The position numbers and the translations under genes were made by a program. DNA of 64,000 bases from Alistipes timonensis. GTDB taxonomy: Bacteria; Bacteroidota; Bacteroidia; Bacteroidales; Muribaculaceae. Below the pieces are notes generated by a model. That model was not told the DNA's origin, did not search any database, and saw only the letters and a program-made list of their open reading frames with translations. Where the stretch lies: NCBI GenBank assembly GCA_023663385.1, contig JAMPHO010000004.1:14053-78052 (forward strand), read 5' to 3'. Below, in pieces: positions 7,768 to 54,532 of the stretch. Positions within the stretch are counted from its first letter, which is position 1; each line of letters begins with the position of its first letter.

Positions 7768-9096
7768 TTAGAGTTTCGAGGCTATTTCGGCCAGGAGGTC
7801 GATCTGCGCGCGGGTCTGCATCTCGGTGGCGGCCATCAACAGGCGGTTTTCGGCCACGCGTATGCCGGCGAGGATGCCCCGGGCGAGTGCGGCGTCGATG
7901 AGCGCCTGGGCCGGGTAGTCGGTTTCCAGCAGAAATTCGTTGAGGAAGGGGCGGTCGGGGTACGCGAGCCGGGCGCGGCCCCCCTCGGTCATCTTGCCGA
8001 GCAGGTAGAGGGCGGCGTTGTGCCCCGCCATCGCGATTTCGCGCAAACCCTTGGCGCCGGTCAGACTCATATAGATCGCGGCGTAGAGGGTCATAAGCCC
8101 CTGGTTGGAGCAGATGTTGGAGGTGGCTTTCTCGCGGCGTATGTGCTGCTCGCGGGCCTGGAGGGTGAGCACGAACGAGCGGCGCCCCTCGCTGTCGGTG
8201 GTCGCGCCGACGATGCGCCCCGGCATCTTGCGCATCAGGGCCTTGGTCGCGCAGAGGAACCCGAGGTAGGGTCCGCCGAAACTCAGTGGTATGCCGAGGC
8301 TCTGGGCGTCGCCGCAGGCAATGTCGGCCCCCCACTCGCCGGGGGTGCGGAGCACCGCCAGGTCGGCGGCCACGCACTGGGTGATCAGGAGCGCCTTCTT
8401 CGAGTGGCATAGGTCGGCCACCCCGGAGAGGTCCTCCACGATCCCATAATAATTAGGTATGGGCATGATGACCGCCGCCACGTCGGAGCGGCTCGCGAGG
8501 AGCTCTTCGAGATGGGCCCGGGATGTCACACTCCCCTCCTCGCGCACCTCTTCCAGGTCGATGCCGTGGAAGCGGGCGTAGGTGGCCACCACTCGGCGCA
8601 CCGCCGGGGCGATGGTGGCCGACAGGAGCACGCGGCGCTTCTTGCGCGCCGCGGCAACGGCCATAAGTGCCGCCTCGGCAGTGGCGGTCGCCCCGTCGTA
8701 CATCGACGCGTTGGAGACCTCCATGCCAGTGAGGCGGCACATCATTGACTGGTATTCAAATATATACTGTAACGTACCCTGTGAGATTTCCGGCTGGTAG
8801 GGGGTGTAGGCCGTCAGGAACTCGGAGCGGCCAATCAGCGACGCCGCGGCGGCTGGCACGGCGTGGTCGTAGAAACCACCCCCGGCGAAACAGGCCGTCA
8901 GGGGTATGTCGCGCGAAGCGAGTTCGTCGAAATGGCGGCGCACGTCGGTCTCGCTCATCTCTTCCGGGAGGTCATAGGGGGCCTTGAGGGTGAGCTCGGG
9001 GGGGACGTCGGAGAAAAGCTCTTTGAGCTCGGCGACGCCGCAGCGGTCGAGCATCAGGCGTATATCCTCCTCGGTATGCGGAAAATAGCGGTGCAT
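7768..9096 (-). CDS. gcvPA: Glycine dehydrogenase (decarboxylating) subunit 1
   Basis: 442 aa. Typical split P-protein alpha subunit, positioned between gcvH and gcvPB. Confidence 0.92.
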   Translation of the reverse strand: MHRYFPHTEEDIRLMLDRCGVAELKELFSDVPPELTLKAPYDLPEEMSETDVRRHFDELASRDIPLTACFAGGGFYDHAVPAAAASLIGRSEFLTAYTPYQPEISQGTLQYIFEYQSMMCRLTGMEVSNASMYDGATATAEAALMAVAAARKKRRVLLSATIAPAVRRVVATYARFHGIDLEEVREEGSVTSRAHLEELLASRSDVAAVIMPIPNYYGIVEDLSGVADLCHSKKALLITQCVAADLAVLRTPGEWGADIACGDAQSLGIPLSFGGPYLGFLCATKALMRKMPGRIVGATTDSEGRRSFVLTLQAREQHIRREKATSNICSNQGLMTLYAAIYMSLTGAKGLREIAMAGHNAALYLLGKMTEGGRARLAYPDRPFLNEFLLETDYPAQALIDAALARGILAGIRVAENRLLMAATEMQTRAQIDLLAEIASKL

Positions 9097-14903: not shown

Positions 14904-16337
14904 TTAGCGAGCCACCTTGAGCAGCTTCACCGTGTCGGGGCCGAGGTTGACGCGAACGATGTAGGCGCGCGAGGCGAACGGCGCCGTGTCAACCGAGAAG
15001 TCAAGCGTCCCGGACGCCGGGAGGAACGCGAGGCGCAACCCGCCTATATCGAAGAGCTCCACGGCGGAAATCTCTGAGGTGGCGCTTACGCGGAGCACCG
15101 CGCCCTCGAACCATCCGCGGACCTCGGCCCCGGAGGGGGTGTCGGGGAGCGCTACCCCGGTTTCGCCGCTGGTGCGGGCCTCGATGTTGAAATCCTTCCA
15201 CTGCGGGGCATCGCGGAACGCGTCGAGCATATCGCGGCTCACATACAGGGTGGTGTTCCCCTTGTCGAGGGTGCCGAAAATATCGTCGCCTATCTCCGGG
15301 AGTTCCGTGAGGTCGGCGGCGTCGATATAGCGGGTGCCGGTCCAGTTGGCGAAAGCCGATTTGCCGACCTCGCGCATAGTCGAGGGGAACGCGACCGAGG
15401 GGCCTACCGAAGTGTAGGCCAGGGCGTAGTCGCCCACCTCGCTGAACGCGGCGGCGGTGCCGTCGGCGAGACCGCTGACGCTCTTCACCCCGGTAAAGGC
15501 GTGGGCGGGTATGGTCTCCAGCGATTTAAGCAGCTCCCCCGCGGCAACTTCGGCCGCGGCGTCGCGGAAGAAGGCGCCCTCCCCTATCGCGCGGGGCATC
15601 GACCCGGAGAAGGTCACCTCGCCGAGCGAGGCGCACCCCGTGAACGCCCAGGGGGCTATGGAGTCAATATCGTTTACAGCCACCACTTTCAGGCCGCTCC
15701 CGGCGAAAGCCTTCTCGCCGATCACCCTCACGGAGGAGGGTATCGCGAACGACTCCAGCGAACGGCAACCGCTGAACGCGAGGGGCGGGATTTCGGCGAT
15801 ATTCCCCTTGAAGGATACAGAAGCGAGTTTGCCGCATCCGCGGAACAGCCCGGTGCCGAGTTTCACGGCGGAAGCGGGGAGCGACACCGCTGATAGCTCC
15901 GGCGAGTCGGCAAACGCCGAGTTGCCTATGGAGGTCACACCTTCGGGAACAGCCACCGACGCGAGCGACGTGGCGGCGAAAGCCCCCTCCCCAATCGCGG
16001 TGGTGTTCTTCGGGAAAGAGAACTCCGCGATCTTCATACCCAAGAACGCCGCCGGGGGGATAACACCCGCCGGAGAGCTTGACACGGAGTTGAGGAGCGC
16101 CTCACCCTCGTAGGCCGCGAGCGTGGCGCCCGAAAGGTCAAGCGACTTCAGTGAAGTCATCTCCGAGTGGATGAACATAAGGTCGGCGGCGTCAACCGAG
16201 CCGCTAACTCGCAGCTCCGCGGCGTCGGTCGAAGTACCGACCGCTCCGCGGAGCTGTCCGGCCTCGGAAGTGACGTCGAGAGCCGCGGCCTGGAGAGATG
16301 CCGCGGCGGCTATGGCAAGGGGTAAGAGGTATCGCAT
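14904..16337 (-). CDS. BspA-type leucine-rich-repeat surface protein with a T9SS C-terminal sorting domain
   Basis: Start set at MRYLLPLAIAAAASLQAA (signal peptide). Repeated ~23-aa units of the form IP.SV..IG..AF..C..L. C-terminal VELFDIGGLRLA..AYIVRVNLG..KLLKVAR is CTD-like. Confidence 0.75.
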   Translation of the reverse strand: MRYLLPLAIAAAASLQAAALDVTSEAGQLRGAVGTSTDAAELRVSGSVDAADLMFIHSEMTSLKSLDLSGATLAAYEGEALLNSVSSSPAGVIPPAAFLGMKIAEFSFPKNTTAIGEGAFAATSLASVAVPEGVTSIGNSAFADSPELSAVSLPASAVKLGTGLFRGCGKLASVSFKGNIAEIPPLAFSGCRSLESFAIPSSVRVIGEKAFAGSGLKVVAVNDIDSIAPWAFTGCASLGEVTFSGSMPRAIGEGAFFRDAAAEVAAGELLKSLETIPAHAFTGVKSVSGLADGTAAAFSEVGDYALAYTSVGPSVAFPSTMREVGKSAFANWTGTRYIDAADLTELPEIGDDIFGTLDKGNTTLYVSRDMLDAFRDAPQWKDFNIEARTSGETGVALPDTPSGAEVRGWFEGAVLRVSATSEISAVELFDIGGLRLAFLPASGTLDFSVDTAPFASRAYIVRVNLGPDTVKLLKVAR

Positions 16338-16454
16338 ATAGTGGTTATTGCACAATTTCACACCTTAATAACTAAGAAACGCCCCGTTTATTGCCCCGCC
16401 CGGCGTTAAATCGGCGGAAGGCAATATCGGGCGGGGGTGTTACGTTAATAAGGC

Positions 16455-17921
16455 ATGTGTAAATCTCTTTCCCGAGGCAGAGTAGCCTCCAAGACGCGCC
16501 GGTTGTTCTTTGCCGCCGCGGCGGCCATAGGGCTTGCCGGGGCGCTGAGCTCGTGCATCGAGGATGGTTTCACCTCCTCACCCTCCGACCAGCCGGCGTT
16601 CTCGACCGACACACTGAGAATGGCCGACCTCTTCACGCTCGAACCTTCGCCGACGAACCGCTTCATCGTGTACAACCGACACGACAAGGGCCTAAACATA
16701 AGCTCGATACGCTTCATTGACGACCCCCGGGGGCTTTTCCGTCTCAACGTCGACGGTATGGCGGGGAGCGACTTCGCGAATGTCGAAATCCGCGCCAACG
16801 ACTCGATTTTCGTATTCGTGGAGGCGACCCTCCCCGAGAACGGCAACGGCGCCCCCGCCGACATTCTGGCCCATATCGAGTTCATTACCAACGGCGTGTC
16901 GTCGAAAATGCCCGTGAAGGTCACCGGGCAGGACGCCGTGCGCCTCTACGAAGGCACAATAATCGACACTGACACCCGCCTCACCGCCGAAAAGCCTTAC
17001 CTGGTGCGCGACTCCATAGTGGTGGCCGAAGGGGCCACGCTGACAATCGAGGCGGGCGCGAGGCTCTACTTCCACGACGGGGCGAGCCTCATAGTCGACG
17101 GCACACTCGACATCCGCGGCGAGGCCGGAAAAACCGTCGAACTCACCGGCGACCGAAAGGGGTTCGTGGCCGCGCAAATCCCTTACGAGATTATGGCCGG
17201 GCAGTGGGAGGGGATTCTCTTCCGCCCCACCTCCGCGGCCAACCGCATAGTCCACGCCTCGATACGCAACACGAAGTGGGGCATCGCCGCCGACAACGCG
17301 CGATCTGAGGGGGACGCCCCGGGGCTTTACCTGCTCAACAGCGTGGTTCGCAACTCGCAGGGGTATGTGCTCGAAACACTCTTCACCGACGTCACCGCCA
17401 TAGGGTGCGAGCTGGCCGAAGCCTCGTCCGGCATAATGTCGCTCACCGGGGGTAACCATCGGTTCAACCACTGCACCATAGCCAACTACTACCTATTCAC
17501 CGCCTTAGGGGGACCCGCGGTGCAGTTGGCACAGACCGGGTTCGCCGACGAGGAGCCGGTCGACCCGGAGCGCCCGATGATGACGGCAGACTTCGCCAAC
17601 TGCATCATCTACGGCAACGGCACGGAGCTGTCGCACCCCGACCTCTCTGGCACCGCCATCACCTTCAACCGCTGCCTGCTGAAATCGGCCGGATCCGACG
17701 ACGATAACTTCATCGAATGCCTCTGGGACACCGACCCCGACTATTACACCGACCGACCCAAGTACATATTCGACTACCGGCTCCGCCCCGGCTCACCCGC
17801 AGCCGCGGCTGCCTACGCGGCGCTGACCGACCCCGCGGCCTCCATCGACATCAACGGCACCCCGCGCCTGCCTGACCCCGACCTGGGCGCCTACCAGACG
17901 GTGCCCGAAGCCGAAGAATAA
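16455..17921 (+). CDS. Hypothetical lipoprotein (possibly beta-helix fold)
   Basis: 488 aa. Lipobox-like GALSSC after a hydrophobic segment. Coding-like composition. I recognise no family. Confidence 0.6.
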   Translation: MCKSLSRGRVASKTRRLFFAAAAAIGLAGALSSCIEDGFTSSPSDQPAFSTDTLRMADLFTLEPSPTNRFIVYNRHDKGLNISSIRFIDDPRGLFRLNVDGMAGSDFANVEIRANDSIFVFVEATLPENGNGAPADILAHIEFITNGVSSKMPVKVTGQDAVRLYEGTIIDTDTRLTAEKPYLVRDSIVVAEGATLTIEAGARLYFHDGASLIVDGTLDIRGEAGKTVELTGDRKGFVAAQIPYEIMAGQWEGILFRPTSAANRIVHASIRNTKWGIAADNARSEGDAPGLYLLNSVVRNSQGYVLETLFTDVTAIGCELAEASSGIMSLTGGNHRFNHCTIANYYLFTALGGPAVQLAQTGFADEEPVDPERPMMTADFANCIIYGNGTELSHPDLSGTAITFNRCLLKSAGSDDDNFIECLWDTDPDYYTDRPKYIFDYRLRPGSPAAAAAYAALTDPAASIDINGTPRLPDPDLGAYQTVPEAEE

Positions 17922-17945
17922 GCTACATCTCATCCACCCATATTG

Positions 17946-17985
17946 AATCCGCCAAGCCCGAGGGTTTTGGCGGATTTAACTTTTT
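17946..17985 (+). terminator. Rho-independent terminator after the lipoprotein gene
   Basis: Stem aatccgccaa (17946-17955) / ttggcggatt (17967-17976), followed by taacttttt. Confidence 0.65.
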
Positions 17986-18125
17986 ATGCGCGAACCAAAG
18001 CCCCTCGGGGGCGTTCTATCAGTGGAACGAGTGACAATTCCGCCACACCTCCCCCCCGCCTACCACCGGGGCGCCGGACAATACCGACTGAAAAACAAAC
18101 CAACTCATAAAAATATACCCTCAAT

Positions 18126-19283
18126 ATGGCAACTAAAACTTACTCGCCCGTCGTACAGGAACTCATCGACATGATCGAAACCAACGGCTGGCGCGACAAA
18201 TTCCAGAAAGCGCTTGACAACTGCCACGCCCTCAACACCATCGAATATGAGAACATAAAGACCCTCGAAGACTACTTCGACTGGCTCGAATCGAACCTCC
18301 ACTGGGTTCCGAAGGAGGATCCCGAAGGGGATGTCGTGTACCAGCACGTCACCATGTTCTACTTCCTGATTGACCAAAGCCCTGTGAAGGAGCTTCAGAC
18401 CCCGATCATCCCCAGCAAGCTCAAGGACAACGTAATGCCGGAGCTCACCCCCTTCTCGCAGTGGATCCGCAAGTACGTCATCTCCTTCGGCGCCTGGATG
18501 GACCAGCCCGAATCGCTCACCGACGAGGCAGTGAAGTCGTACTACGACTCCCCCCGCTACAATATGAGCGACTACGATATGCCCGAGGGTGGCTGGAAGA
18601 CCTTCAACCAGTTCTTCGCCCGCAGCTGCAAGCCCGGCTACCGCCCCATCGCCGCCATCAACGACGACCATATCATCGTGTCGCCGGCCGACTCCACCAA
18701 CGACGGCCAGTGGGAAATCAACTCCGACTCGCAGGTCAACATCAAGGGGCTCGAATGGAGCATCGAGGAGCTGCTCCAGGGTAGCGACTACAAGGACGAC
18801 TTCAAGGGTGGCCTCTGGATTCACCAGTTCCTCAACACCGTTGACTACCACCGCGAACACGCTCCCGTAGGGGGCAAGGTGCTCGAAGCCCGCGTGCTCC
18901 AGGGCGCTACCTGGCTCGGAGTAACCACCGAACCTATCGAGGGTGACGAAAAGGGCCGAGTGCGCATCGTGCGCCGCAAACTGTCGGCCCTCGACGAAGC
19001 CGGCTACCAGTTCCTCCAGACCCGCGGCCTGGTTGTAATCCAGTCGAAAATCGGCAAGGTTGCCATCCTCCCTATGGGTATGGCCCAGGTATCGTCGATC
19101 GTTGTCACCGCTCAGAAGGGGGTAACCCTGCGCAAGGGCGAGGAGATTTCCTACTTCCAGTTCGGCGGCTCCGACATCGTGATGGTGTTCGAGCGCGCAT
19201 CGAACGTCAACATCACCGCCCAGCCCGGCGTACACTACAAGGTAGGCACCAAGATTGCCGAGGCTTACCCCGTAGGCGAATAA
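18126..19283 (+). CDS. Soluble phosphatidylserine-decarboxylase-family (pyruvoyl-dependent) decarboxylase paralog, substrate unknown
   Basis: 385 aa with no signal peptide or TM segment. PSD-family DYHREH motif (nt 18843-18860). FQFGGS self-cleavage motif with Ser349 encoded at nt 19170-19172, which would leave a 37-aa alpha chain. Has a ~200-aa N-terminal extension. The canonical 230-aa psd is at 53100..53792. Confidence 0.75.
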   Translation: MATKTYSPVVQELIDMIETNGWRDKFQKALDNCHALNTIEYENIKTLEDYFDWLESNLHWVPKEDPEGDVVYQHVTMFYFLIDQSPVKELQTPIIPSKLKDNVMPELTPFSQWIRKYVISFGAWMDQPESLTDEAVKSYYDSPRYNMSDYDMPEGGWKTFNQFFARSCKPGYRPIAAINDDHIIVSPADSTNDGQWEINSDSQVNIKGLEWSIEELLQGSDYKDDFKGGLWIHQFLNTVDYHREHAPVGGKVLEARVLQGATWLGVTTEPIEGDEKGRVRIVRRKLSALDEAGYQFLQTRGLVVIQSKIGKVAILPMGMAQVSSIVVTAQKGVTLRKGEEISYFQFGGSDIVMVFERASNVNITAQPGVHYKVGTKIAEAYPVGE

Positions 19284-19335
19284 CCTCTCTTGCCGCCCGG
19301 CCCCATCAGGGGCGCTAACGAGAAAATAATATTTT

Positions 19336-19369
19336 ACAGGCGGGGCCAGCGGGTCCCGCCTGTGTTTTT
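19336..19369 (+). terminator. Intrinsic terminator/attenuator hairpin between the decarboxylase and antiporter genes
   Basis: Stem acaggcggg (19336-19344) / cccgcctgt (19355-19363) with a 10-nt loop, followed by gttttt. Confidence 0.55.
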
Positions 19370-19392
19370 CCACGTCAAAACTATTTTTCGAG

Positions 19393-21012
19393 ATGGGTAA
19401 AACAACATCCAACAAGGCACCCGCGCCCGAACTTACCGCGTCGGGGCGCAAGAAGCACGTTTCAACCGCCCGCGGCACCCTCACAATGGCCGCCATGGCG
19501 ATTATGATCGTCACTTCGATTCTGAGCCTGCGAGGACTCCCCTCCGAGGCGAAATACGGCATTCAGTCGATATTCTACTACGTTTTCGCGGCCATAGTGT
19601 TCCTGCTCCCCTTCTCGCTGGTGTGCGCCGAGCTGGCCTCCACCTACACCAAGCCGGGGGGACTTTACCGCTGGGTGGCCGAAGCGTTCGGCCCGAAATG
19701 GGGGTGGACGGCCATGTACCTCGAATGGCAGACAATCGTGTTCTGGTTCCCGACGGTGCTGATGTTCGGCGCCGCCTCGCTGGCCTACATTTTCTGGCCC
19801 GAGAGCTTCGACCGGGCGCTCGCATCCAACAAGCTGTACACCCTCGCCGTCGCGATGCTGATGTACTGGCTTGCGACGCTCAACGCCTTCCGAGGGCAGA
19901 AGTCGGCCAACGTGCTCAGCACCTACGGCGGTATGGTGGGCACCATCATCCCCGGCGCGGCGCTGATCGTGCTCGGCATCATATACTTCCTCTGCGGCAA
20001 GCATATATACCTGGCCGACGTGCCTTTCTTCCCCGACTTCACCAATATGGGCACCATAGTGCTGGCGGCCTCGATATTCCTCTTCTACGCCGGCATGGAG
20101 ATTCAGGCCGTGCATATCAACGATATGCGTAACCCGGCCCGCGACTTCCCCAAAGCGGTGTTCGCGGCCATCATCGTGATCATAGCCCTCTATGCTCTGG
20201 GCACGCTGGTGATCGGGCTGGTGATTCCGACCGAGAACATCAACCTGCTCCAGTCGCTATTGGTGGCCTACCGCGCGCTGTGGGCGAGCTTCGGCCTGAG
20301 CTGGCTGGGTAACGTCATGGCCCTGCTGATAATGTTCGGCGTCGTGGGCCAGATCAGCGCCCTCGTCACCGGTCCCGCCACCGGCCTTATGGCCGTGGCC
20401 CAGTCGGGCTACCTCCCGCGGAGTCTGCAAAAAGTCAACGCAAAGGGGGTCAACAAGCGCATCCTCCTCATCGAAGGTGGCTTCGTGAGCCTCATCAGCC
20501 TGGTGCTGATCGTGCTCCCCACCGTGGAGTCGGCCTACCAGATACTCTCGCAGATGGCCACGATTATCTACCTGGTGATGGTGGTGCTCATCTACGGCGC
20601 ATTCATACGTCTGCGGCGCACCTCCCCCGGGCGTAAGCGCGGCTTCAAGGTGCCGGGCGGCAAGTTCGGCGAATGGGCCGTGTGCGGCCTCGGCATAGCC
20701 GGAGCGCTGCTGGCCATGGTGCTGAGCTTCCTCCCCCCGTCGCAGATTTCGACGGGTAGCCCGGTTGTCTACGTCGGCATAATCTTCATCGGCGTGGCCG
20801 TGTTCATCGCCCTGCCGTTAGTGGTCTACTCGAAGCGCAAGCCATCGTGGCGTGACCCGAACGCCCACTTCTACCCCTTCGACTGGCAGATCGAGGGGCG
20901 CAAGCCCGGGGAGGTTTCCAAATGGGAGTCCGGCTACGAACCCACCGAGGAGCAGGTAGAAGCCGCCGAGGATAGGGCAGTCGCCGACCACGGCAAGTAT
21001 AAGCATACCTGA
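19393..21012 (+). CDS. APC-superfamily amino acid/amine antiporter, GadC-like
   Basis: 539-aa polytopic protein. It is co-linear with my recollection of E. coli GadC blocks (FFPDF, TENINLL, GFKVPGGK, SFLPP) and has a hydrophilic C-terminal tail. Confidence 0.8.
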   Translation: MGKTTSNKAPAPELTASGRKKHVSTARGTLTMAAMAIMIVTSILSLRGLPSEAKYGIQSIFYYVFAAIVFLLPFSLVCAELASTYTKPGGLYRWVAEAFGPKWGWTAMYLEWQTIVFWFPTVLMFGAASLAYIFWPESFDRALASNKLYTLAVAMLMYWLATLNAFRGQKSANVLSTYGGMVGTIIPGAALIVLGIIYFLCGKHIYLADVPFFPDFTNMGTIVLAASIFLFYAGMEIQAVHINDMRNPARDFPKAVFAAIIVIIALYALGTLVIGLVIPTENINLLQSLLVAYRALWASFGLSWLGNVMALLIMFGVVGQISALVTGPATGLMAVAQSGYLPRSLQKVNAKGVNKRILLIEGGFVSLISLVLIVLPTVESAYQILSQMATIIYLVMVVLIYGAFIRLRRTSPGRKRGFKVPGGKFGEWAVCGLGIAGALLAMVLSFLPPSQISTGSPVVYVGIIFIGVAVFIALPLVVYSKRKPSWRDPNAHFYPFDWQIEGRKPGEVSKWESGYEPTEEQVEAAEDRAVADHGKYKHT

Positions 21013-21092: not shown

Positions 21093-22754
21093 CTACGCGA
21101 AGCAGAGTATGAGCGCCTGGGCCGCCACCACGCGGAGGAACATTGTGAGCGGGTAAACCGTCGAATACGCCACCGCCGGAGCGTCGTTGCCGGTGGAGTT
21201 GCCGGCATAGGCCAGGGCGGGGGGATCGGTATAACCGCCCGACATCAGACCCATAAGGGTGAGGTAGTTGATTTTGAAAATGCCGCGGCCGATGAGCCCC
21301 ACGATCAGCAGGGGGAGGAAGGTGATGATGAAGCCCCAGATAACCCACCACATACCTGTGTTGTTGAACACGGTGGAGGCGAAGTTGGCGCCCGCGCCGA
21401 TACCTACGGCGGCGAGGAACATACATATGCCGAGCTCGCGGAGCATCAGAGACGCCGACGAAGAGGTGTAGGTGACGAGCTTGAACTTATAGCCGAAGCG
21501 GCTCAGAAGGATGGCCACAACCAGCGGGCCGCCGGCCAGACCGAGCTTCATGCCGAACCCGACGTTGATCGAGCCGACGATGATACCGAAGAGGATGCCT
21601 ACGAAGATGGTGATCAGGTTGGGGTGGTCGAGACGCTTCATCGAGTTGCCGAGCTTGGCCGAGAGGCGGTCGATGTCGTTGAGGTCACCCACGATGGTTA
21701 TGCGGTCGCCGATCTGGAGTCGCAGGCCGGGGGTAGCGAGGAGGTCGACACCGGCGCGGTTCACGCGGGTGCAGTTGAGGTTGTAACCCTTGTGGAGGCG
21801 GAGCTTGCCGAGAGCCACGCCGTTGTAGTCGTTGTTGGTGATGAGTATGCGGCGGCTCACGACGTGCTCGGGAGCAACCTCGTTCCAATCCTCGTCGTCC
21901 ATCTCGATCGAGGGACCTACGACGGCCTCGAAGCTGGGGAGGTCGGAGGCGTTCATCACAACGTAGAGCTTGTCGCCGACGCGGATCTGGGTGGTCGATT
22001 TGGGGATAATCGTCGAGCCGTCCTGCTGCATCAGACGCGACACCACGAACTCGCAGTGGATAATCTGGTGGAGCTGTACCAGGGTGCGGCCGTTGATAAG
22101 GGCGTTGGTCACCTCGAACGAGGCGAGGAACGGTTTCCCCTGGCCATCCTCGGCCTCGGCGTTCATCTTCTCGATCTCCTTCTCGGTCTTGATGCCGAAC
22201 AGGGCCTTGATGATGAGCATCGCCATAATGATGCCGAGCACGCCCAAGGGGTATGCGGCGGCGTAGCCCATCGACATCACGTTGACAGCTTCGGGGTTAC
22301 CGGCGGCCTGCTGGGCGGCTGCCAGACCCGGGGTGTTGGTGACGGCGCCAGACATCACGCCCACCAGGGCCTCGATCGAGGTGTTGCCGTCGATATAGTA
22401 AATCGCGAGCACGATAGCCACGTTGAGCGCTATGCCGAGCACTGCCAGCATATTGAGGCGTATGCCACCCTCCTTGAACGAGGAGAAGAAGGCCGGGCCC
22501 ACCTGGAGGCCGATCGCGAAAATAAACAGAATAAGGCCGAACTCGCGCACGAACTTCAGCACGTCGGGCTGCACGGTATAGCCGAAATGGCCCATGAGGA
22601 TGCCGACAAACAATACGAAAGTCACGCCCAGCGAAATCCCCGCGACGCGGAGCTTGCCGAGATAGATGCCCGCGGCGATCACGAACGACAGCAGCACCAG
22701 CGTGCTGGCCAGCGACGTGTTCCCCGGCATGAGCAGGTCATAAAAGAAATCCAT
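21093..22754 (-). CDS. AAEx-family transporter (AspT/YidE/YbjL type, with two central RCK_C/TrkA-C-like domains)
   Basis: 553 aa. Duplicated membrane halves flank a soluble central region. The N-terminus MDFFYDLL..GIYLGKLRVAGISLGVTFVLFVGILMGHFG is typical of the YidE/YbjL/AspT family. Confidence 0.75.
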   Translation of the reverse strand: MDFFYDLLMPGNTSLASTLVLLSFVIAAGIYLGKLRVAGISLGVTFVLFVGILMGHFGYTVQPDVLKFVREFGLILFIFAIGLQVGPAFFSSFKEGGIRLNMLAVLGIALNVAIVLAIYYIDGNTSIEALVGVMSGAVTNTPGLAAAQQAAGNPEAVNVMSMGYAAAYPLGVLGIIMAMLIIKALFGIKTEKEIEKMNAEAEDGQGKPFLASFEVTNALINGRTLVQLHQIIHCEFVVSRLMQQDGSTIIPKSTTQIRVGDKLYVVMNASDLPSFEAVVGPSIEMDDEDWNEVAPEHVVSRRILITNNDYNGVALGKLRLHKGYNLNCTRVNRAGVDLLATPGLRLQIGDRITIVGDLNDIDRLSAKLGNSMKRLDHPNLITIFVGILFGIIVGSINVGFGMKLGLAGGPLVVAILLSRFGYKFKLVTYTSSSASLMLRELGICMFLAAVGIGAGANFASTVFNNTGMWWVIWGFIITFLPLLIVGLIGRGIFKINYLTLMGLMSGGYTDPPALAYAGNSTGNDAPAVAYSTVYPLTMFLRVVAAQALILCFA

Positions 22755-22899: not shown

Positions 22900-23655
22900 T
22901 CAGAAGCGGAGGGTGTATTTGATTTTGTGGTTTTTGGCCCAGCGCTTCCAGAAGCGCTCGCGGTAGGCCAGGAGGTCGCGGCGGGATCGGTCGGGGTCCT
23001 CGCCGCGGGCCTTGGCATACTCCTCGGCCAGCAGGGCGAACATCTCGGGCTGCCCCCATAGGCGCACAAAGCCGTAGAGCCCCTCGCGGAAGGGGACCTC
23101 GCGGAACTGCATGCGGTTGATGTCGACCAGCGAGAAGCGCCAGCCCCCCTTGCCGTCGGAGTCGAAGAGGATGTTGCCCGGCGAGTAGTCGCGGTGTATG
23201 ATTCCGGCCTCGTGGAGGCGGGCCGTCAGGCGGGCGAACGGGCGCATCACCGGGGCAAACTGCTCCTCGGTCGCGTCGCCGAACTCGAAGAAGCGGCGAC
23301 TGAGCGCGCTCTGCACGCTCACGAAGTAGGAGTAAGCTATGAGCCCCCCCTCGCGGCGTTCGATGTAGGCCACGGGCGCGGGGGTTTCGAAGCCCCGCTC
23401 GATGAGCACCCGGGGGTACTCGAAGGCGCGGACCCCCTTGGGCTTGCGCAGGAAGGTGTAGGCCACGCGGTTTATCCATATCGGGCGGCGGTAGCGCTTG
23501 ACGTTGAGCTCGGGGCCTCCCGGAGGGGTCACGGCCCGGATTTCGTTGCGCCCCGAGTGTATGACGCGCCCCGAGGCGAAATGCTCCTCGATATTCTCCA
23601 GGTAGGGGCGGAGGCGCTCAAACTCGGGCGCTATCTGTATCAATGGTCGGCTCAT
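22900..23655 (-). CDS. Lipopolysaccharide kinase (Kdo/WaaP) family protein
   Basis: 251 aa. Protein-kinase-like catalytic loop IIHRDYSPGNILF and LVDINRM. Last gene of the LicD cassette, 1 nt after the upstream stop. Confidence 0.7.
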   Translation of the reverse strand: MSRPLIQIAPEFERLRPYLENIEEHFASGRVIHSGRNEIRAVTPPGGPELNVKRYRRPIWINRVAYTFLRKPKGVRAFEYPRVLIERGFETPAPVAYIERREGGLIAYSYFVSVQSALSRRFFEFGDATEEQFAPVMRPFARLTARLHEAGIIHRDYSPGNILFDSDGKGGWRFSLVDINRMQFREVPFREGLYGFVRLWGQPEMFALLAEEYAKARGEDPDRSRRDLLAYRERFWKRWAKNHKIKYTLRF

Positions 23656-23656
23656 A

Positions 23657-24493
23657 TCACTTGTTTTTCCAGAAGAATTTGCTGGAGGTGTGCTGCACGC
23701 GTTTTTCTTCCGGGGGGATGGTCATATAGTCGGGGTACTGGGGTATGAGGAACGTATGGTAGTCGGCGGGCACGCGCACCTCGGTGTCCTCGAAGGGCAT
23801 CAGCGCCGTACGGTCGAGGATGTCGGCGGGGAGATGGTCGCGGTAGACCCACCCGCGGGCCCCGAGCTGCGACACATGGCCGGTGGAGCCCCAGAGGTGG
23901 CGGGCCATCACGCGGAGCTGCCCGCGGTTGGCCTCCATAACCTCCTCATCGCTGACGCGGGCGCGCTTTGCCAGCACGCGTATCCAGCGCTGCCAGAGCT
24001 TCCACCCCCCGGAGAGGGCGCGGAGGTCGGCGAACTTTGCCAGCCGTTTGCGCAGATGGTTCACCTTGTCGAACAGCACGCGGCACTCCTCGGCCTGGCG
24101 GTCGAACACCACCGGGTCGTCGGAGACGGCGTCGAGGGGGAACACGTCGACCCACACGCCGCCGCGCTCACCCTTCTTCCACCCGTATTTGGTGAAGGCC
24201 AGCGTGTCGCGGGTGTCGTAGACCCTCGCCAGGGGCTGGTAGGAGTCCTCGCCGGGCACGGCAACCTTCAGTCGGTCCGAGCGGAACTCGCGGAGGAAGC
24301 GCTCATAGTCGGGGCGGGGCATCACGATGTCGACGTCGTCGTCCCAGGGGATGAACCCCTTGTGGCGCACAGCCCCGATCAGGGTGCCGTAGGCCACGGC
24401 GTAGCGCAGGCCGCGCTCCTCGCAGAAGGCGTGAATCTCCTTGAGGATGCCGAGTGAGAATAATTGCAGTTCGCGTAGGGTCAGTTCCTTCAT
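23657..24493 (-). CDS. LicD-family phosphotransferase (copy 1)
   Basis: 278 aa. LicD hallmark AYGTLIGAVRHKGFIPWDDDVDIVMPRPDYERF. Confidence 0.85.
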   Translation of the reverse strand: MKELTLRELQLFSLGILKEIHAFCEERGLRYAVAYGTLIGAVRHKGFIPWDDDVDIVMPRPDYERFLREFRSDRLKVAVPGEDSYQPLARVYDTRDTLAFTKYGWKKGERGGVWVDVFPLDAVSDDPVVFDRQAEECRVLFDKVNHLRKRLAKFADLRALSGGWKLWQRWIRVLAKRARVSDEEVMEANRGQLRVMARHLWGSTGHVSQLGARGWVYRDHLPADILDRTALMPFEDTEVRVPADYHTFLIPQYPDYMTIPPEEKRVQHTSSKFFWKNK

Positions 24494-25338
24494 TTCTTGT
24501 CTTTCCAGTAGAATTTGGTCGCGGAGAGGGTGTGCTGCTCGCGCTTGTTCTCGGGAGGGAGGGTCATATAGTCGGGATACTGCGGTATGAGGAAAGTGTG
24601 GTAGTCGCGGGGCACGCGCACCTCCATATCCTCGAAGGGCATCAGTATCGTGTCGTCGAAAAGGTCGGCGGGGAGATGGTCATGGTAGACCCAGGCGCGG
24701 ATTCCGAGCTGCGACACATGGCCGGTGGAGCCCCAGGGGTATTTCTCCATCAGGCGCGTCTGCTCGCGGTTCTCCTCCATGAGGTCGGGGAACCCGGCGC
24801 GGAGCTTCCACCACTGGGCGCGCACCCAGCGCCAGGGGAAGTGCCAGCGGGGTGGCACGTTGCGCAGGTCGGCGGCGGTGGCCATCATTTTGCGGCGGCG
24901 CACCATGCGGCGGTATAGCCGGCGGCACTCCTCGGCGTGGCGGTCGAACTCGGCGGGGTCGTCGGGCACATTATCAATCGGGTACACGTCGATCCAGAGC
25001 CCGGCCCTCTCGCCCCCCTTCTTGAAGGGGTACTTGGTGTAGGCCACGGTGTCGCGCGTGTCGTACACGCGGGCTATCGGCTGGCACGAGTCCTCGCCGG
25101 GAATGGCTACCTTGGCGCGGTCGGAGCGGAAACCGCGTATGAAGCGCTCGTAGTCGGGGCGGGGCATCACGATGTCGATGTCGTCGTCCCAGGGTATGAA
25201 ACCCTTGTGGCGCACGACACCGATGAGCGAGCCGTAGGCCATGGAGTATCGGACGCCGTTGGCCTCGCACCAGGCGTGGATTTCCTTCATCATATCGAGC
25301 GACAACAGCTGTATTTCGCGTAGGGTCAGTTCTTTCAT
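24490..25338 (-). CDS. LicD-family phosphotransferase (copy 2, tandem paralog)
   Basis: 282 aa. AYGSLIGVVRHKGFIPWDDDIDIVMPRPDYERF. Overlaps copy 1 by 4 nt. Confidence 0.85.
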   Translation of the reverse strand: MKELTLREIQLLSLDMMKEIHAWCEANGVRYSMAYGSLIGVVRHKGFIPWDDDIDIVMPRPDYERFIRGFRSDRAKVAIPGEDSCQPIARVYDTRDTVAYTKYPFKKGGERAGLWIDVYPIDNVPDDPAEFDRHAEECRRLYRRMVRRRKMMATAADLRNVPPRWHFPWRWVRAQWWKLRAGFPDLMEENREQTRLMEKYPWGSTGHVSQLGIRAWVYHDHLPADLFDDTILMPFEDMEVRVPRDYHTFLIPQYPDYMTLPPENKREQHTLSATKFYWKDKK

Positions 25339-52346: not shown

Positions 52347-53060
52347 TTACTTGAACAGCAGGGCCAGGACGATGTAGAGGAGGATGGCCGGAGCGAAACC
52401 GGCTACCCCGAAGAATACAACAAACGCGGCGCTCCCGAGGATTAGCAGATAGCGGGGAAAATTCTCGCTCAGCGAGAAGTTCTTGAGCTTCAGGGAGAAC
52501 ATACGCGCCGGGGCGACCATCATCAGCGAGGCCGCGGCTATCAGAGCGCACCAGCAGAGGGCCGAAAGCCAGGCGGCCCCGAACGACACCAGCGAGGGTT
52601 CGGAGGCGATCCAGGCCGTCGCGCCGATCCAGAAGATGGCCTCGGCGGGGATGGGGAGGCCGCGGAACACTGTTGCCTGCGACTCGTCGATATTGAACTT
52701 GGCCAGACGGAGCTGCCCCATCACGGGTATCAGCAGCGCGGCATACGGGAGCCAGCCCACCGGGCTGTAGGCGCGCAGGAGGTTGAAAAGGAGCATCGCG
52801 GGGGCCACGCCGAAGCTCACCAGGTCGGAGAGGGAGTCAAGCTCCTTACCCATGGCCGAGTAAGCCTTCAAAAGGCGGGCCGAGAGGCCGTCGCAGAAGT
52901 CGAAAACGGCGGCGAGCCCTATGCACACCCACACCCACTGGTACCCCGCCAGGGGGCCGAACTGCTCGAACGGGCTGAAGGCGAAGGTGATTGCCACCGC
53001 GCCGCTTATGAGGTTGCAGCAGGTGATTGTGTTGGGTATGGAGCGGGTGATTACGTTCAT
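52347..53060 (-). CDS. pssA: CDP-diacylglycerol--serine O-phosphatidyltransferase
   Basis: 237 aa. CDP-alcohol phosphatidyltransferase motif DFCDGLSARLLKAYSAMGKELDSLSDLVSFG. Confidence 0.9.
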   Translation of the reverse strand: MNVITRSIPNTITCCNLISGAVAITFAFSPFEQFGPLAGYQWVWVCIGLAAVFDFCDGLSARLLKAYSAMGKELDSLSDLVSFGVAPAMLLFNLLRAYSPVGWLPYAALLIPVMGQLRLAKFNIDESQATVFRGLPIPAEAIFWIGATAWIASEPSLVSFGAAWLSALCWCALIAAASLMMVAPARMFSLKLKNFSLSENFPRYLLILGSAAFVVFFGVAGFAPAILLYIVLALLFK

Positions 53061-53099
53061 CGTAAAAAGCGTTTTGTTGGGAAACTGGCTCGGCCGCGC

Positions 53100-53792
53100 T
53101 TAAGCCTCCGCGGGGGCGGCGTCGGGGCGGAGGAGCCCCACCTGGGTGATGCCTCCGACGGTCGGGTCGCCGATTTTCACGAAAATCTCGGTCGAGAGGG
53201 GCAGGTAGAGGTCGATGCGCGACCCGAGCTTGATGAAGCCCATGTGGTCCTCAATCGAAGCCTCGACGCCCGGCTGGGCGTAAGTGACGATGCGGCGGGC
53301 CATAGCCCCGGCCACCTGGCGCATGAGCACGAGCTGCCCCTGGGGGGTGCGGATCACCACGGTCGAGCGCTCGTTCTCGGTGCTCGACTTCGGGAGGTAG
53401 GCGGCGCGGCAGCGGCCATTGTGGTGCGTTGAGTAAACCACCTCGCCGTCAACCGGGAACCAGTTGGCGTGCACGTTGAGGGGCGACATAAACACGGAGA
53501 GCTGTATGCAGCGGCACTTCAGGTACTCCCCCTCGTAGGTCTCCTCAAGGGCCACCACCTTGCCGTCGGCGGCCGACACCACGGCGTTGACCGGGTTGCC
53601 GGGGAAATGGCGGCGCGGCGAGCGGTAGAAGTTGACAACCAACAGGAAGAACACCAATGACAGAACGCTGACCGACACGGCCAGCCAACGCATATGCGGC
53701 AGCCAGATCCACAGCGGCAGGTTTACAAGCAGCAGCCCCGCGGCAAGAACGGTGAGCACATGGGTGCCCTCGCGGTGTATCTTTACTCTCAT
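53100..53792 (-). CDS. psd: Phosphatidylserine decarboxylase proenzyme (canonical, membrane-anchored)
   Basis: 230 aa. Two N-terminal TM segments. The LGS cleavage motif lies in GFIKLGSRIDLYLP. Adjacent to pssA. Confidence 0.9.
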   Translation of the reverse strand: MRVKIHREGTHVLTVLAAGLLLVNLPLWIWLPHMRWLAVSVSVLSLVFFLLVVNFYRSPRRHFPGNPVNAVVSAADGKVVALEETYEGEYLKCRCIQLSVFMSPLNVHANWFPVDGEVVYSTHHNGRCRAAYLPKSSTENERSTVVIRTPQGQLVLMRQVAGAMARRIVTYAQPGVEASIEDHMGFIKLGSRIDLYLPLSTEIFVKIGDPTVGGITQVGLLRPDAAPAEA

Positions 53793-53957: not shown

Positions 53958-54236
53958 CTACTTATCGCCGTAGTGGCCTTTAAGCGATACTACTGAGACA
54001 ACGACAGCTTCGTCTTCAATCGCATAAATCATTCGTGAGCCCTTATCAATCCGTCGGCTCCAATATCCCGCCAAATCCCCTTTAAGCTGCTCTACCTGGC
54101 CCGTACCGTAAGTCGGATGTTCACGGAGTTCGGCAAACAGCCCAACAATCTTTTTGAGGATTTTCTTCTGCCCGGATTTTTGCCACTCTTTCAGATGCTT
54201 TTCAGCCTCCGGCAGCAATATCAGCTCATAAGTCAT
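53958..54236 (-). CDS. Type II toxin, YoeB/Txe family
   Basis: 92 aa. GYWSRRIDKGSRMIY and a C-terminal GHYGDK. 4-nt ATGA overlap with the upstream small gene. Confidence 0.85.
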   Translation of the reverse strand: MTYELILLPEAEKHLKEWQKSGQKKILKKIVGLFAELREHPTYGTGQVEQLKGDLAGYWSRRIDKGSRMIYAIEDEAVVVSVVSLKGHYGDK

Positions 54237-54532
54237 ACGCCCAGCATAGCCTTGATTTCATCCATTGTGTAGGCACGGCCTTTGCCCGCTTTTTTTTCAG
54301 CGATGCCGCGTTTGACCGATTCCATATTCTCCGCGTCGTCAAACCACTTGTCACCGGAAGGCGATGGATTCTCCTTCACTTCAACCGCGATGGAATCCGC
54401 CTTGGAAATCAGTATCGTTTCGATGTAGTTCTTCAAGCTCTTACCCTGCGCCACCGCCATTATCGACAGTTTACGCAGCGTCTCAACTGGAAGGTCGATA
54501 TTCTTACGCTTTACATTTACCGCTGTTGCCAT
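54233..54532 (-). CDS. Putative antitoxin cognate to the YoeB-like toxin
   Basis: 99 aa. Position and overlap are typical of a type II TA pair. The N-terminal segment (LPVETLRKLSIMAVAQGKSLKNYIE) looks like an RHH/DNA-binding fold. Confidence 0.7.
   Translation of the reverse strand: MATAVNVKRKNIDLPVETLRKLSIMAVAQGKSLKNYIETILISKADSIAVEVKENPSPSGDKWFDDAENMESVKRGIAEKKAGKGRAYTMDEIKAMLGV

Follow-up and report, generated by a model that had tools for sequence, protein, structure and literature searches.

Predicted PSD-fold decarboxylase genes beside GadC-type transporter genes: a probable amino acid decarboxylation/exchange module of Muribaculaceae

Two adjacent genes in a 64,000-nucleotide stretch of Muribaculaceae DNA (contig JAMPHO010000004.1 of assembly GCA_023663385.1; the whole stretch is hereafter the window) probably form a decarboxylation/exchange module, in which an enzyme with the fold of phosphatidylserine decarboxylase (PSD) would act on a free amino acid and a neighboring transporter would exchange this precursor for the product. 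A first-pass annotation of the sequence had read the pair in the same way, as a PSD-fold amino acid decarboxylase with its antiporter, and that reading is supported by the conserved adjacency of the genes, the families that the transporter resembles, the fold of the enzyme, its scores below the PSD cutoffs, and the replacement of lipid-contacting residues. Classical systems of this type, e.g., GadB/GadC, TyrDC/TyrP, and HdcA/HdcP, consist of a cytoplasmic decarboxylase, which is pyruvoyl-dependent in the case of HdcA, and an APC precursor/product exchanger encoded by the adjacent gene. These systems provided the analogies for the module, while the fungal enzymes PsiD and Ao-ADC1 provided those for the decarboxylase. 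Both open reading frames (ORFs), of 385 and 539 amino acids (aa), were recovered in the ORF listing at the coordinates originally assigned to them, and the features of the locus are as follows.

18126..19283, plus strand: predicted pyruvoyl-dependent decarboxylase gene, soluble PSD-fold proenzyme of 385 aa (ORF listing, PF02666)
18126..18602, plus strand: N-terminal all-helical domain, aa 1-159 (structural model; no Pfam match)
18603..19259, plus strand: PS_Dcarbxylase (PF02666) catalytic core, aa 160-378 (E 8.8e-46)
18690..18692, plus strand: codon of Asp189, predicted self-cleavage triad (equivalent to E. coli PSD Asp90; Glu in PsiD and Ao-ADC1)
18843..18860, plus strand: DYHREH motif, aa 240-245 (alignments with solved enzymes)
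19164..19172, plus strand: Gly347-Gly348-Ser349 in FQFGGSD, predicted serinolysis site (alignments)
19284..19392, plus strand: decarboxylase-transporter spacer, 109 nt (ORF coordinates)
19335..19369, plus strand: terminator-like hairpin at 19335-19364 (13 bp, 9 of them G-C, about -26 kcal/mol), then TTTTT (fold computation)
19393..21012, plus strand: APC-superfamily transporter gene, GadC (glutamate/GABA antiporter; GABA, gamma-aminobutyric acid) subfamily, 539 aa (PF13520, E 2e-52)

Linkage of the two genes was surveyed in one genome per GTDB species, using a narrow alignment of relatives of the decarboxylase; at least 586 loci were found, and the best 79 of these were examined. An APC homologue lies directly downstream on the same strand in 62 of the 79 loci, two of which also have a divergent upstream copy, lies divergently upstream only in another four, and is found elsewhere in the locus in one. 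No APC homologue is present in 11 loci, and the contig ends before the question can be settled in the remaining one. Immediate adjacency on either side, which the first-pass annotation had proposed to look for across Bacteroidota, is therefore conserved in 66 of the 79 loci. The divergent upstream arrangement is seen in L018, L019, L022, and L023, while L017 and L020 have an APC gene on both sides. Adjacency spans decarboxylase identities from 87% down to 57% and survives tandem amplification of the decarboxylase gene, with two or three paralogs preceding a single APC gene in 15/79 loci (L030, L038, L040, L044, L045, L047, L048, L050, L052, L055, L056, L058, L062, L064, and L067).

These data bear directly on the alternative that the adjacency is fortuitous or inherited, with no functional coupling, and that the protein has some other pyruvoyl-dependent role or a purely proteolytic one. 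The terminator-like hairpin between the genes and the 11 loci that have no APC neighbor are compatible with this alternative, which is nevertheless very improbable, because the adjacency is kept across the full range of decarboxylase identity, survives rearrangement as well as amplification, and occurs among flanking genes that otherwise differ almost wholly from locus to locus. Inherited synteny does not explain a linkage that persists while nearly everything around it changes, and the 79-locus survey effectively excludes chance adjacency.

The transporter adopts the APC fold with 12 transmembrane (TM) helices and is co-linear with GadC, as first annotated: E. coli GadC (4dji) matches it at E 1.2e-59 (residues 30-481 against 13-466), with the next PDB match at 6e-09, and the TIGR03813 model is aligned across positions 3-477 of its 479. 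Its four best NCBIfam families are TIGR03813 (Gln/GABA GadC; 598.6 bits, cutoff 650), NF053662 (Glu/GABA GadC; 436 bits, cutoff 640), NF040513 (TyrP; 286 bits, cutoff 630), and TIGR00910 (GadC; 244 bits, cutoff 673.5). All four are precursor/product antiporters, and the grouping with non-exchanger APC subfamilies, named at the outset as contrary to the antiporter proposal, was not observed among them. The near miss of the GadC cutoff places the protein in a group sister to GadC and not among its equivalogs, and it is predicted to be a precursor/product exchanger of the same GadC/TyrP branch that serves the classical modules. Past residue 481, it continues into a cytoplasmic, charged, His-containing C-terminal tail of 55-58 aa that has no sequence similarity to the GadC C-plug.

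Many Muribaculaceae loci depart from the classical two-gene arrangement by adding an MFS transporter, an outer-membrane porin, extra decarboxylase paralogs, or a decarboxylase dependent on pyridoxal phosphate (PLP). An MFS_1 transporter follows the APC gene in 37/79 loci and an outer-membrane porin (Porin_2/DcaP-like) in 29/79, while a group-II PLP decarboxylase whose specificity is unassigned lies immediately upstream in 9/79. Examples of such extended cassettes are L017:3258-5878(-), L005:6190-7947(+), L026, L027, L043, L066, and L072. The window contains no homologue of the cassette MFS, porin, or PLP decarboxylase and represents the minimal two-gene version, which suggests that the two-gene unit is sufficient.

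The extended cassettes make it plausible, although on balance unlikely, that the enzyme is a biosynthetic or catabolic pyruvoyl amino acid decarboxylase served by an importer rather than an exchanger, with the amine used inside the cell (e.g., as a polyamine precursor, beta-alanine, or ethanolamine) or leaving by way of the MFS protein. The MFS_1 gene that so often follows the APC gene could encode an exporter, panB lies nearby in 5/79 loci, the APC protein scores under the GadC equivalog cutoff, and some members of the family in other phyla have no transporter neighbor. Importer coupling is opposed by the antiporter identity of all four best NCBIfam families, by GadC being the best PDB relative, by the window having none of the additional cassette genes, and by the rarity of the panB association. 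The panB linkage was itself judged to be synteny noise, with no real support for an aspartate-to-beta-alanine reaction. The convergent transporter gene that abuts the module was also considered as a part of it and rejected, as no homologue occurs in the 79 loci; it encodes a 553-aa AspT/YidE/YbjL-family protein at 21093-22754 on the minus strand (NF003007, 606 bits), with two Asp-Al_Ex halves and TrkA_C domains.

The proposed decarboxylation/exchange module requires an enzyme that can form a pyruvoyl group, and the residues expected for this can be compared with those of E. coli PSD, in which D90/D142-H144-S254 form the self-cleavage system, Tyr137 binds phosphate, and Leu252 contacts the acyl chain (PMC7952604). 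By alignment, the self-cleavage residues of the 385-aa protein appear complete (D189, D240, H242, and G348-S349). Asp240 and His242 correspond to E. coli PSD Asp142 and His144, and the histidine also corresponds to PsiD His296 and Ao-ADC1 His332; G348-S349 corresponds to E. coli PSD G253-S254. The motifs listed in the first reading, DYHREH and FQFGGS with Ser349 encoded at nt 19170-19172, are all present. Conservation was assessed in a family set consisting of the window protein and 96 further genes from 79 genomes. Position 189 is D or E in 97/97 members and GGSD is present in 97/97; the GGS site and the YH histidine are retained in all 96 further genes, and G347, G348, and S349 are invariant in a family alignment. 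In the PDB, the beta chains of PsiD (8X4Q) and Ao-ADC1 (9JER) stop at the aligned GG(S), and cleavage ahead of Ser349 is predicted to yield chains of 39.75 and 3.99 kDa (calculated).

PF02666 is the sole Pfam domain of the protein, and one of the two families proposed at the outset for checking was thereby detected. The N-terminal region that precedes this core measures about 125-160 aa, shorter than the ~200 aa first estimated. An AlphaFold2 model built from a 69-sequence alignment (mean pLDDT 87.5, pTM 0.83) consists of helices at residues 8-19, 23-35, 47-57, 70-82, 109-126, and 133-140, followed by a beta-rich PSD core. The N-terminal helical domain stands in place of the membrane-binding helices of E. 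coli PSD, and its W60, P62, Y79, S111, W113, and G122 are conserved across Muribaculaceae and fungal relatives.

Structural comparison, also proposed in the first-pass annotation, was carried out with Foldseek against the PDB and placed PsiD first, ahead of E. coli PSD. PsiD (8ZIA, 8X4Q) was matched at E 6e-14 over 390-394 columns (query TM-score, TMq, 0.54-0.57), Ao-ADC1 (9JER, 9JF5) at E 1.4e-11 over about 430 columns (TMq 0.54), and E. coli PSD at E 3e-11 over about 260 columns restricted to the core (TMq 0.45). These spans indicate that the entire architecture, and not the core alone, resembles the two known PSD-fold enzymes whose substrates are free amino acids. PsiD of Psilocybe cubensis is an L-tryptophan decarboxylase (PMC11929908), and Ao-ADC1 of Aspergillus oryzae is an arginine decarboxylase, pyruvoyl-dependent and functional at low pH, that lacks PSD activity (PMC12904898). 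PsiD had been cited at the outset as the precedent for free amino acid substrates, and it holds as one, but it is no longer the sole example, Ao-ADC1 being the second.

PsiD (8X4Q, 8ZIA) is also the best profile match in the PDB. Like the window protein, it is soluble, consists of an N-terminal helical region and a PF02666 core, and has the GGS site, the YH histidine, the acidic triad residue, and Phe in place of E. coli Tyr137. Differences include its pocket (V292/T293/T374/E375 versus T238/V239/A320/Q321 in the window protein), an N-terminal domain that is not alignable by sequence, and its location in a fungal secondary-metabolite cluster with no antiporter partner. Ao-ADC1 shares the PSD fold with an N-terminal helix region and a GGS(T) cleavage site; it differs in being a 483-aa fungal protein with no linked exchanger and in having Asp at the position aligned with V239. 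E. coli Psd (7CNW, 6L06) shares the PF02666 core, the self-cleavage residues D90/D142-H144-S254, and a pyruvoyl mechanism, but is a monotopic membrane enzyme whose three amphipathic N-terminal helices (H1-H3) have no counterpart in the window protein and whose cleavage site is LGS rather than GGS.

A decarboxylase of this fold might instead be a second lipid decarboxylase, i.e., a soluble or peripheral PSD isozyme for phosphatidylserine, lysophosphatidylserine, or another serine-headgroup lipid, with the permease being an unrelated neighbor or a source of serine. The PF02666 domain and the current NCBI name of the protein, "phosphatidylserine decarboxylase" (MCM1071035.1), fit this possibility, as do the retention of both the D90 and D142 equivalents, as in E. 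coli PSD, and profile scores that rank E. coli PSD nearly as high as PsiD in the catalytic core. Searches with phmmer, which align the core only, likewise place the three solved enzymes at roughly equal distances (E. coli PSD, E 5.5e-13; PsiD, 2.4e-12; Ao-ADC1, 3.5e-10). A role in phospholipid synthesis is already served in this window by a separate pair of genes, which were annotated as such at 52347-53792 in the first reading and are confirmed.

52347-53060, minus strand: pssA, beside the housekeeping psd (profile searches)
53100-53792, minus strand: housekeeping membrane psd, 230 aa (NF003678, 240.7 bits against a cutoff of 225)

Unlike this housekeeping enzyme, which clears its PSD-family cutoff, the 385-aa protein falls under all six NCBIfam cutoffs for phosphatidylserine/archaetidylserine decarboxylases, its best score being 108 bits against 371 (NF001941). 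Neither a hydrophobic nor an amphipathic membrane anchor was found in it, in agreement with the first reading: no TM-like segment was detected, the maximum 19-residue Kyte-Doolittle mean being 1.58, within a core beta-strand, versus a peak of 2.55 in the housekeeping psd product (residues 35-55). Two residues with which E. coli PSD contacts its lipid are replaced, Tyr137 by Phe235, as in PsiD (F289), and Leu252 by Gly347 (PMC7952604). These departures from PSD, and the fact that the window already has an authentic psd/pssA pair, make a second lipid PSD quite unlikely, as do a full-length fold closer to the soluble amino acid decarboxylases and a conserved linkage to an amino acid exchanger. 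The designation of the 385-aa copy as a paralog does not hold in the sense of recent paralogy with the psd of the window: the two proteins are barely alignable by BLASTP (E 0.043), and a recent paralog was rejected as its origin.

If the module operates as proposed, the cytoplasmic proenzyme would cleave itself between Gly348 and Ser349 with the participation of Asp189 and Asp240-His242, giving beta and alpha chains of 39.8 and 4.0 kDa, respectively, and Ser349, then at the N-terminus of the alpha chain, would be converted to a pyruvoyl group. A free amino acid would be held by this group as a Schiff base through its alpha-amino nitrogen, and removal of its alpha-carboxyl would consume a cytoplasmic proton, by a mechanism like that of PsiD on Trp and Ao-ADC1 on Arg. 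The GadC-type exchanger would then bring the amino acid in and carry the amine product out. Such a cycle would export amine and alkalinize the cytoplasm and could generate proton-motive force, so that its physiological role might lie in acid tolerance, energy conservation through proton-motive force, or amine release. The enzyme differs from those of GadB/GadC, TyrDC/TyrP, and HdcA/HdcP, in which a decarboxylase gene likewise stands beside an exchanger gene, in having neither the PLP fold-type I nor the HdcA pyruvoyl fold.

The positions of the window protein that align with the PsiD pocket (T238, V239, A320, and Q321) are small and uncharged, which argues weakly against a basic substrate and against a fully ionized acidic one. 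A Glu/Gln-like or other neutral-polar amino acid is offered as a tentative first guess, because the transporter is nearest to Bacteroidota-type GadC, a weak pointer. Among the family genes, the positions aligned with the PsiD indole pocket vary: position 192 is N, F, H, or Y, positions 237-239 are NTV, NTT, NTY, NTF, NTN, or GPA, and positions 320-321 are AQ, GQ, or SN. The tandem copies (around locus position 8001) are 50-62% identical to the window protein and keep the catalytic residues, while positions 192, 237-239, and 320-321 differ. This variation is the pattern that would be expected if substrate specificity has diversified.

Several observations weigh against the module as proposed. 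PsiD and Ao-ADC1 are only about 16% identical in sequence to the window protein, and the TM-scores to PsiD are moderate. The second Pfam family named for checking, PF12588 (PSDC), is unmatched by aa 1-160 even at E 10; three fungal relatives likewise have no PF12588 match at E values up to 10. An attempt to read the substrate from the pocket residues, using the PsiD pocket map and the Ao-ADC1 alignment, was abandoned because the residues lack charge and do not point to any particular amino acid. The score of the transporter lies below the GadC equivalog cutoff, and an exchange mode is assigned to this protein from family membership only. The decarboxylase genes of the 11 loci that have no adjacent APC gene are neighbored by unrelated housekeeping genes, and relatives in Pseudomonadota and archaeal metagenome-assembled genomes (MAGs) have no transporter neighbor. 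Finally, a strong terminator-like hairpin between the two genes means that their co-transcription is not assured.

The hairpin occupies part of a spacer that measures 109 nt, rather than the 110 nt first reported, and a hairpin followed by a T-run, at -10 kcal/mol or stronger, recurs in 33 of 60 homologous spacers. By acting as a partial terminator or attenuator, the structure may set the ratio of enzyme to transporter; it suggests partial termination, with expression of the transporter below that of the enzyme. No Rfam riboswitch or leader was found in 17800-19500, and the Bacteroidota -7 motif (TAnnTTTG) was not found on the plus strand upstream of either gene.

A search of 1.84 billion representative proteins yielded 214 representatives at E <= 1e-30, many of them full length and including the N-terminal domain. 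Close relatives (57-98% identity) come almost entirely from Muribaculaceae/Bacteroidales MAGs and isolates, including a cultured Muribaculum (WP_123478249.1), and all are named "phosphatidylserine decarboxylase." Single 90%-identity clusters occur on 420 and 707 metagenomic contigs, and members are found in human-gut genome collections (MGYG-HGUT and UMGS record titles). The family is thus abundant among Bacteroidales of the mouse and human gut, and its database name is a misnomer. Submitter taxon labels on some of these records (MCM1071035.1 / MCM1406007.1, L005, L009, and L071) read '[Clostridium] fimetarium', 'Alistipes timonensis', 'Pseudoflavonifractor sp.', 'Clostridiales bacterium', and 'Gallionella sp.'; they appear inconsistent with the Muribaculaceae-type gene content and probably reflect mislabelled bins.

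Outside Bacteroidales, the nearest tier of relatives (40-52% full-length identity) consists mainly of fungal proteins, with members from Beauveria, Rhizophagus, Metarhizium, Aspergillus, Botrytis, and Fusarium, and also includes proteins from a Theionarchaea MAG and a Pseudomonadota MAG. In a Theionarchaea-type MAG (L085:8001-13056), after a 369-aa member come a second PF02666 protein, of 525 aa, and a B12-binding radical SAM enzyme, a setting very unlike the exchanger pairing. The fungal proteins, e.g., Beauveria KAK8143587.1, Rhizophagus EXX75017.1, and Metarhizium XP_007825942.1, some of which have names such as "PSD-domain / PsiD-like domain-containing," belong to the actual sequence family of the window protein, since they share its N-terminal domain and all catalytic residues over the full length; they differ in having eukaryotic-looking neighborhoods with no APC exchanger. 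No function for them was found in the searchable literature. One fungal representative (P0148) is itself remote from PsiD, Ao-ADC1, and E. coli PSD alike (E about 1e-12), which places the window protein in a third, uncharacterized clade that combines a helical domain with a PSD core. The distribution across fungi and bacteria could stem from ancient horizontal transfer. For the window gene itself, a mobile element or recent transfer was considered and rejected, there being no plasmid match and its GC content and that at third codon positions (GC3) being those of the neighboring genes.

Decarboxylase/antiporter modules are already known, as are PSD-fold amino acid decarboxylases, from the two fungal enzymes. 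A description of a bacterial PSD-fold amino acid decarboxylase, or of its pairing with an exchanger, was not found in the full-text literature, a search whose coverage did not extend to subscription journals. A 2025 survey of gut amino acid decarboxylases covers PLP enzymes and only the pyruvoyl classes HdcA, PanD, and PdaD, with no mention of PF02666 or phosphatidylserine (PMC12484125). Gut amine surveys miss the family because databases name it "phosphatidylserine decarboxylase," and it probably represents an unrecognized vitamin B6-independent route to amines in gut bacteria.

A wider proposal falls slightly short of an even chance: that these proteins constitute a diversified, PLP-independent family of PSD-fold amino acid decarboxylases, arranged in cassettes in which one to three paralogs accompany a GadC-type exchanger and in which an MFS transporter, a porin, and a PLP decarboxylase may also be encoded. 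Substrates would differ from paralog to paralog, the cassettes would contribute uncounted biogenic amines in the gut (possibly GABA or related neuroactive amines) as well as acid tolerance, and their ancestry would be shared across kingdoms with the fungal "PsiD-like" proteins. If the family is one of amino acid decarboxylases coupled to exchangers, it would add a fourth enzyme fold to bacterial decarboxylation/antiport systems, offer a testable origin for microbiota-dependent amines in mice, and indicate what hundreds of unannotated fungal homologues may do. Determinants of specificity in the PSD fold could be mapped with the tandem paralogs, which form a natural series.

Other genes of the window were noted in passing. 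Upstream of the module lie a BspA-type leucine-rich-repeat surface protein gene (14904-16361, minus strand) and, immediately before the decarboxylase gene, a gene whose 488-aa product matches nothing in Pfam or NCBIfam (16455-17921, plus strand); neither is conserved with the module. The interval 53958-54532 (minus strand) holds a gene for a 92-aa YoeB/ParE-type toxin, directly beside the housekeeping psd, and an overlapping upstream ORF of 99 aa that has no Pfam match and probably encodes the antitoxin. At 22900-25338 (minus strand), a Kdo/WaaP-like kinase gene is followed by two LicD-family genes in tandem (278 and 282 aa), which overlap by 4 nt, and this cluster looks like one for surface-glycan or phosphocholine decoration.

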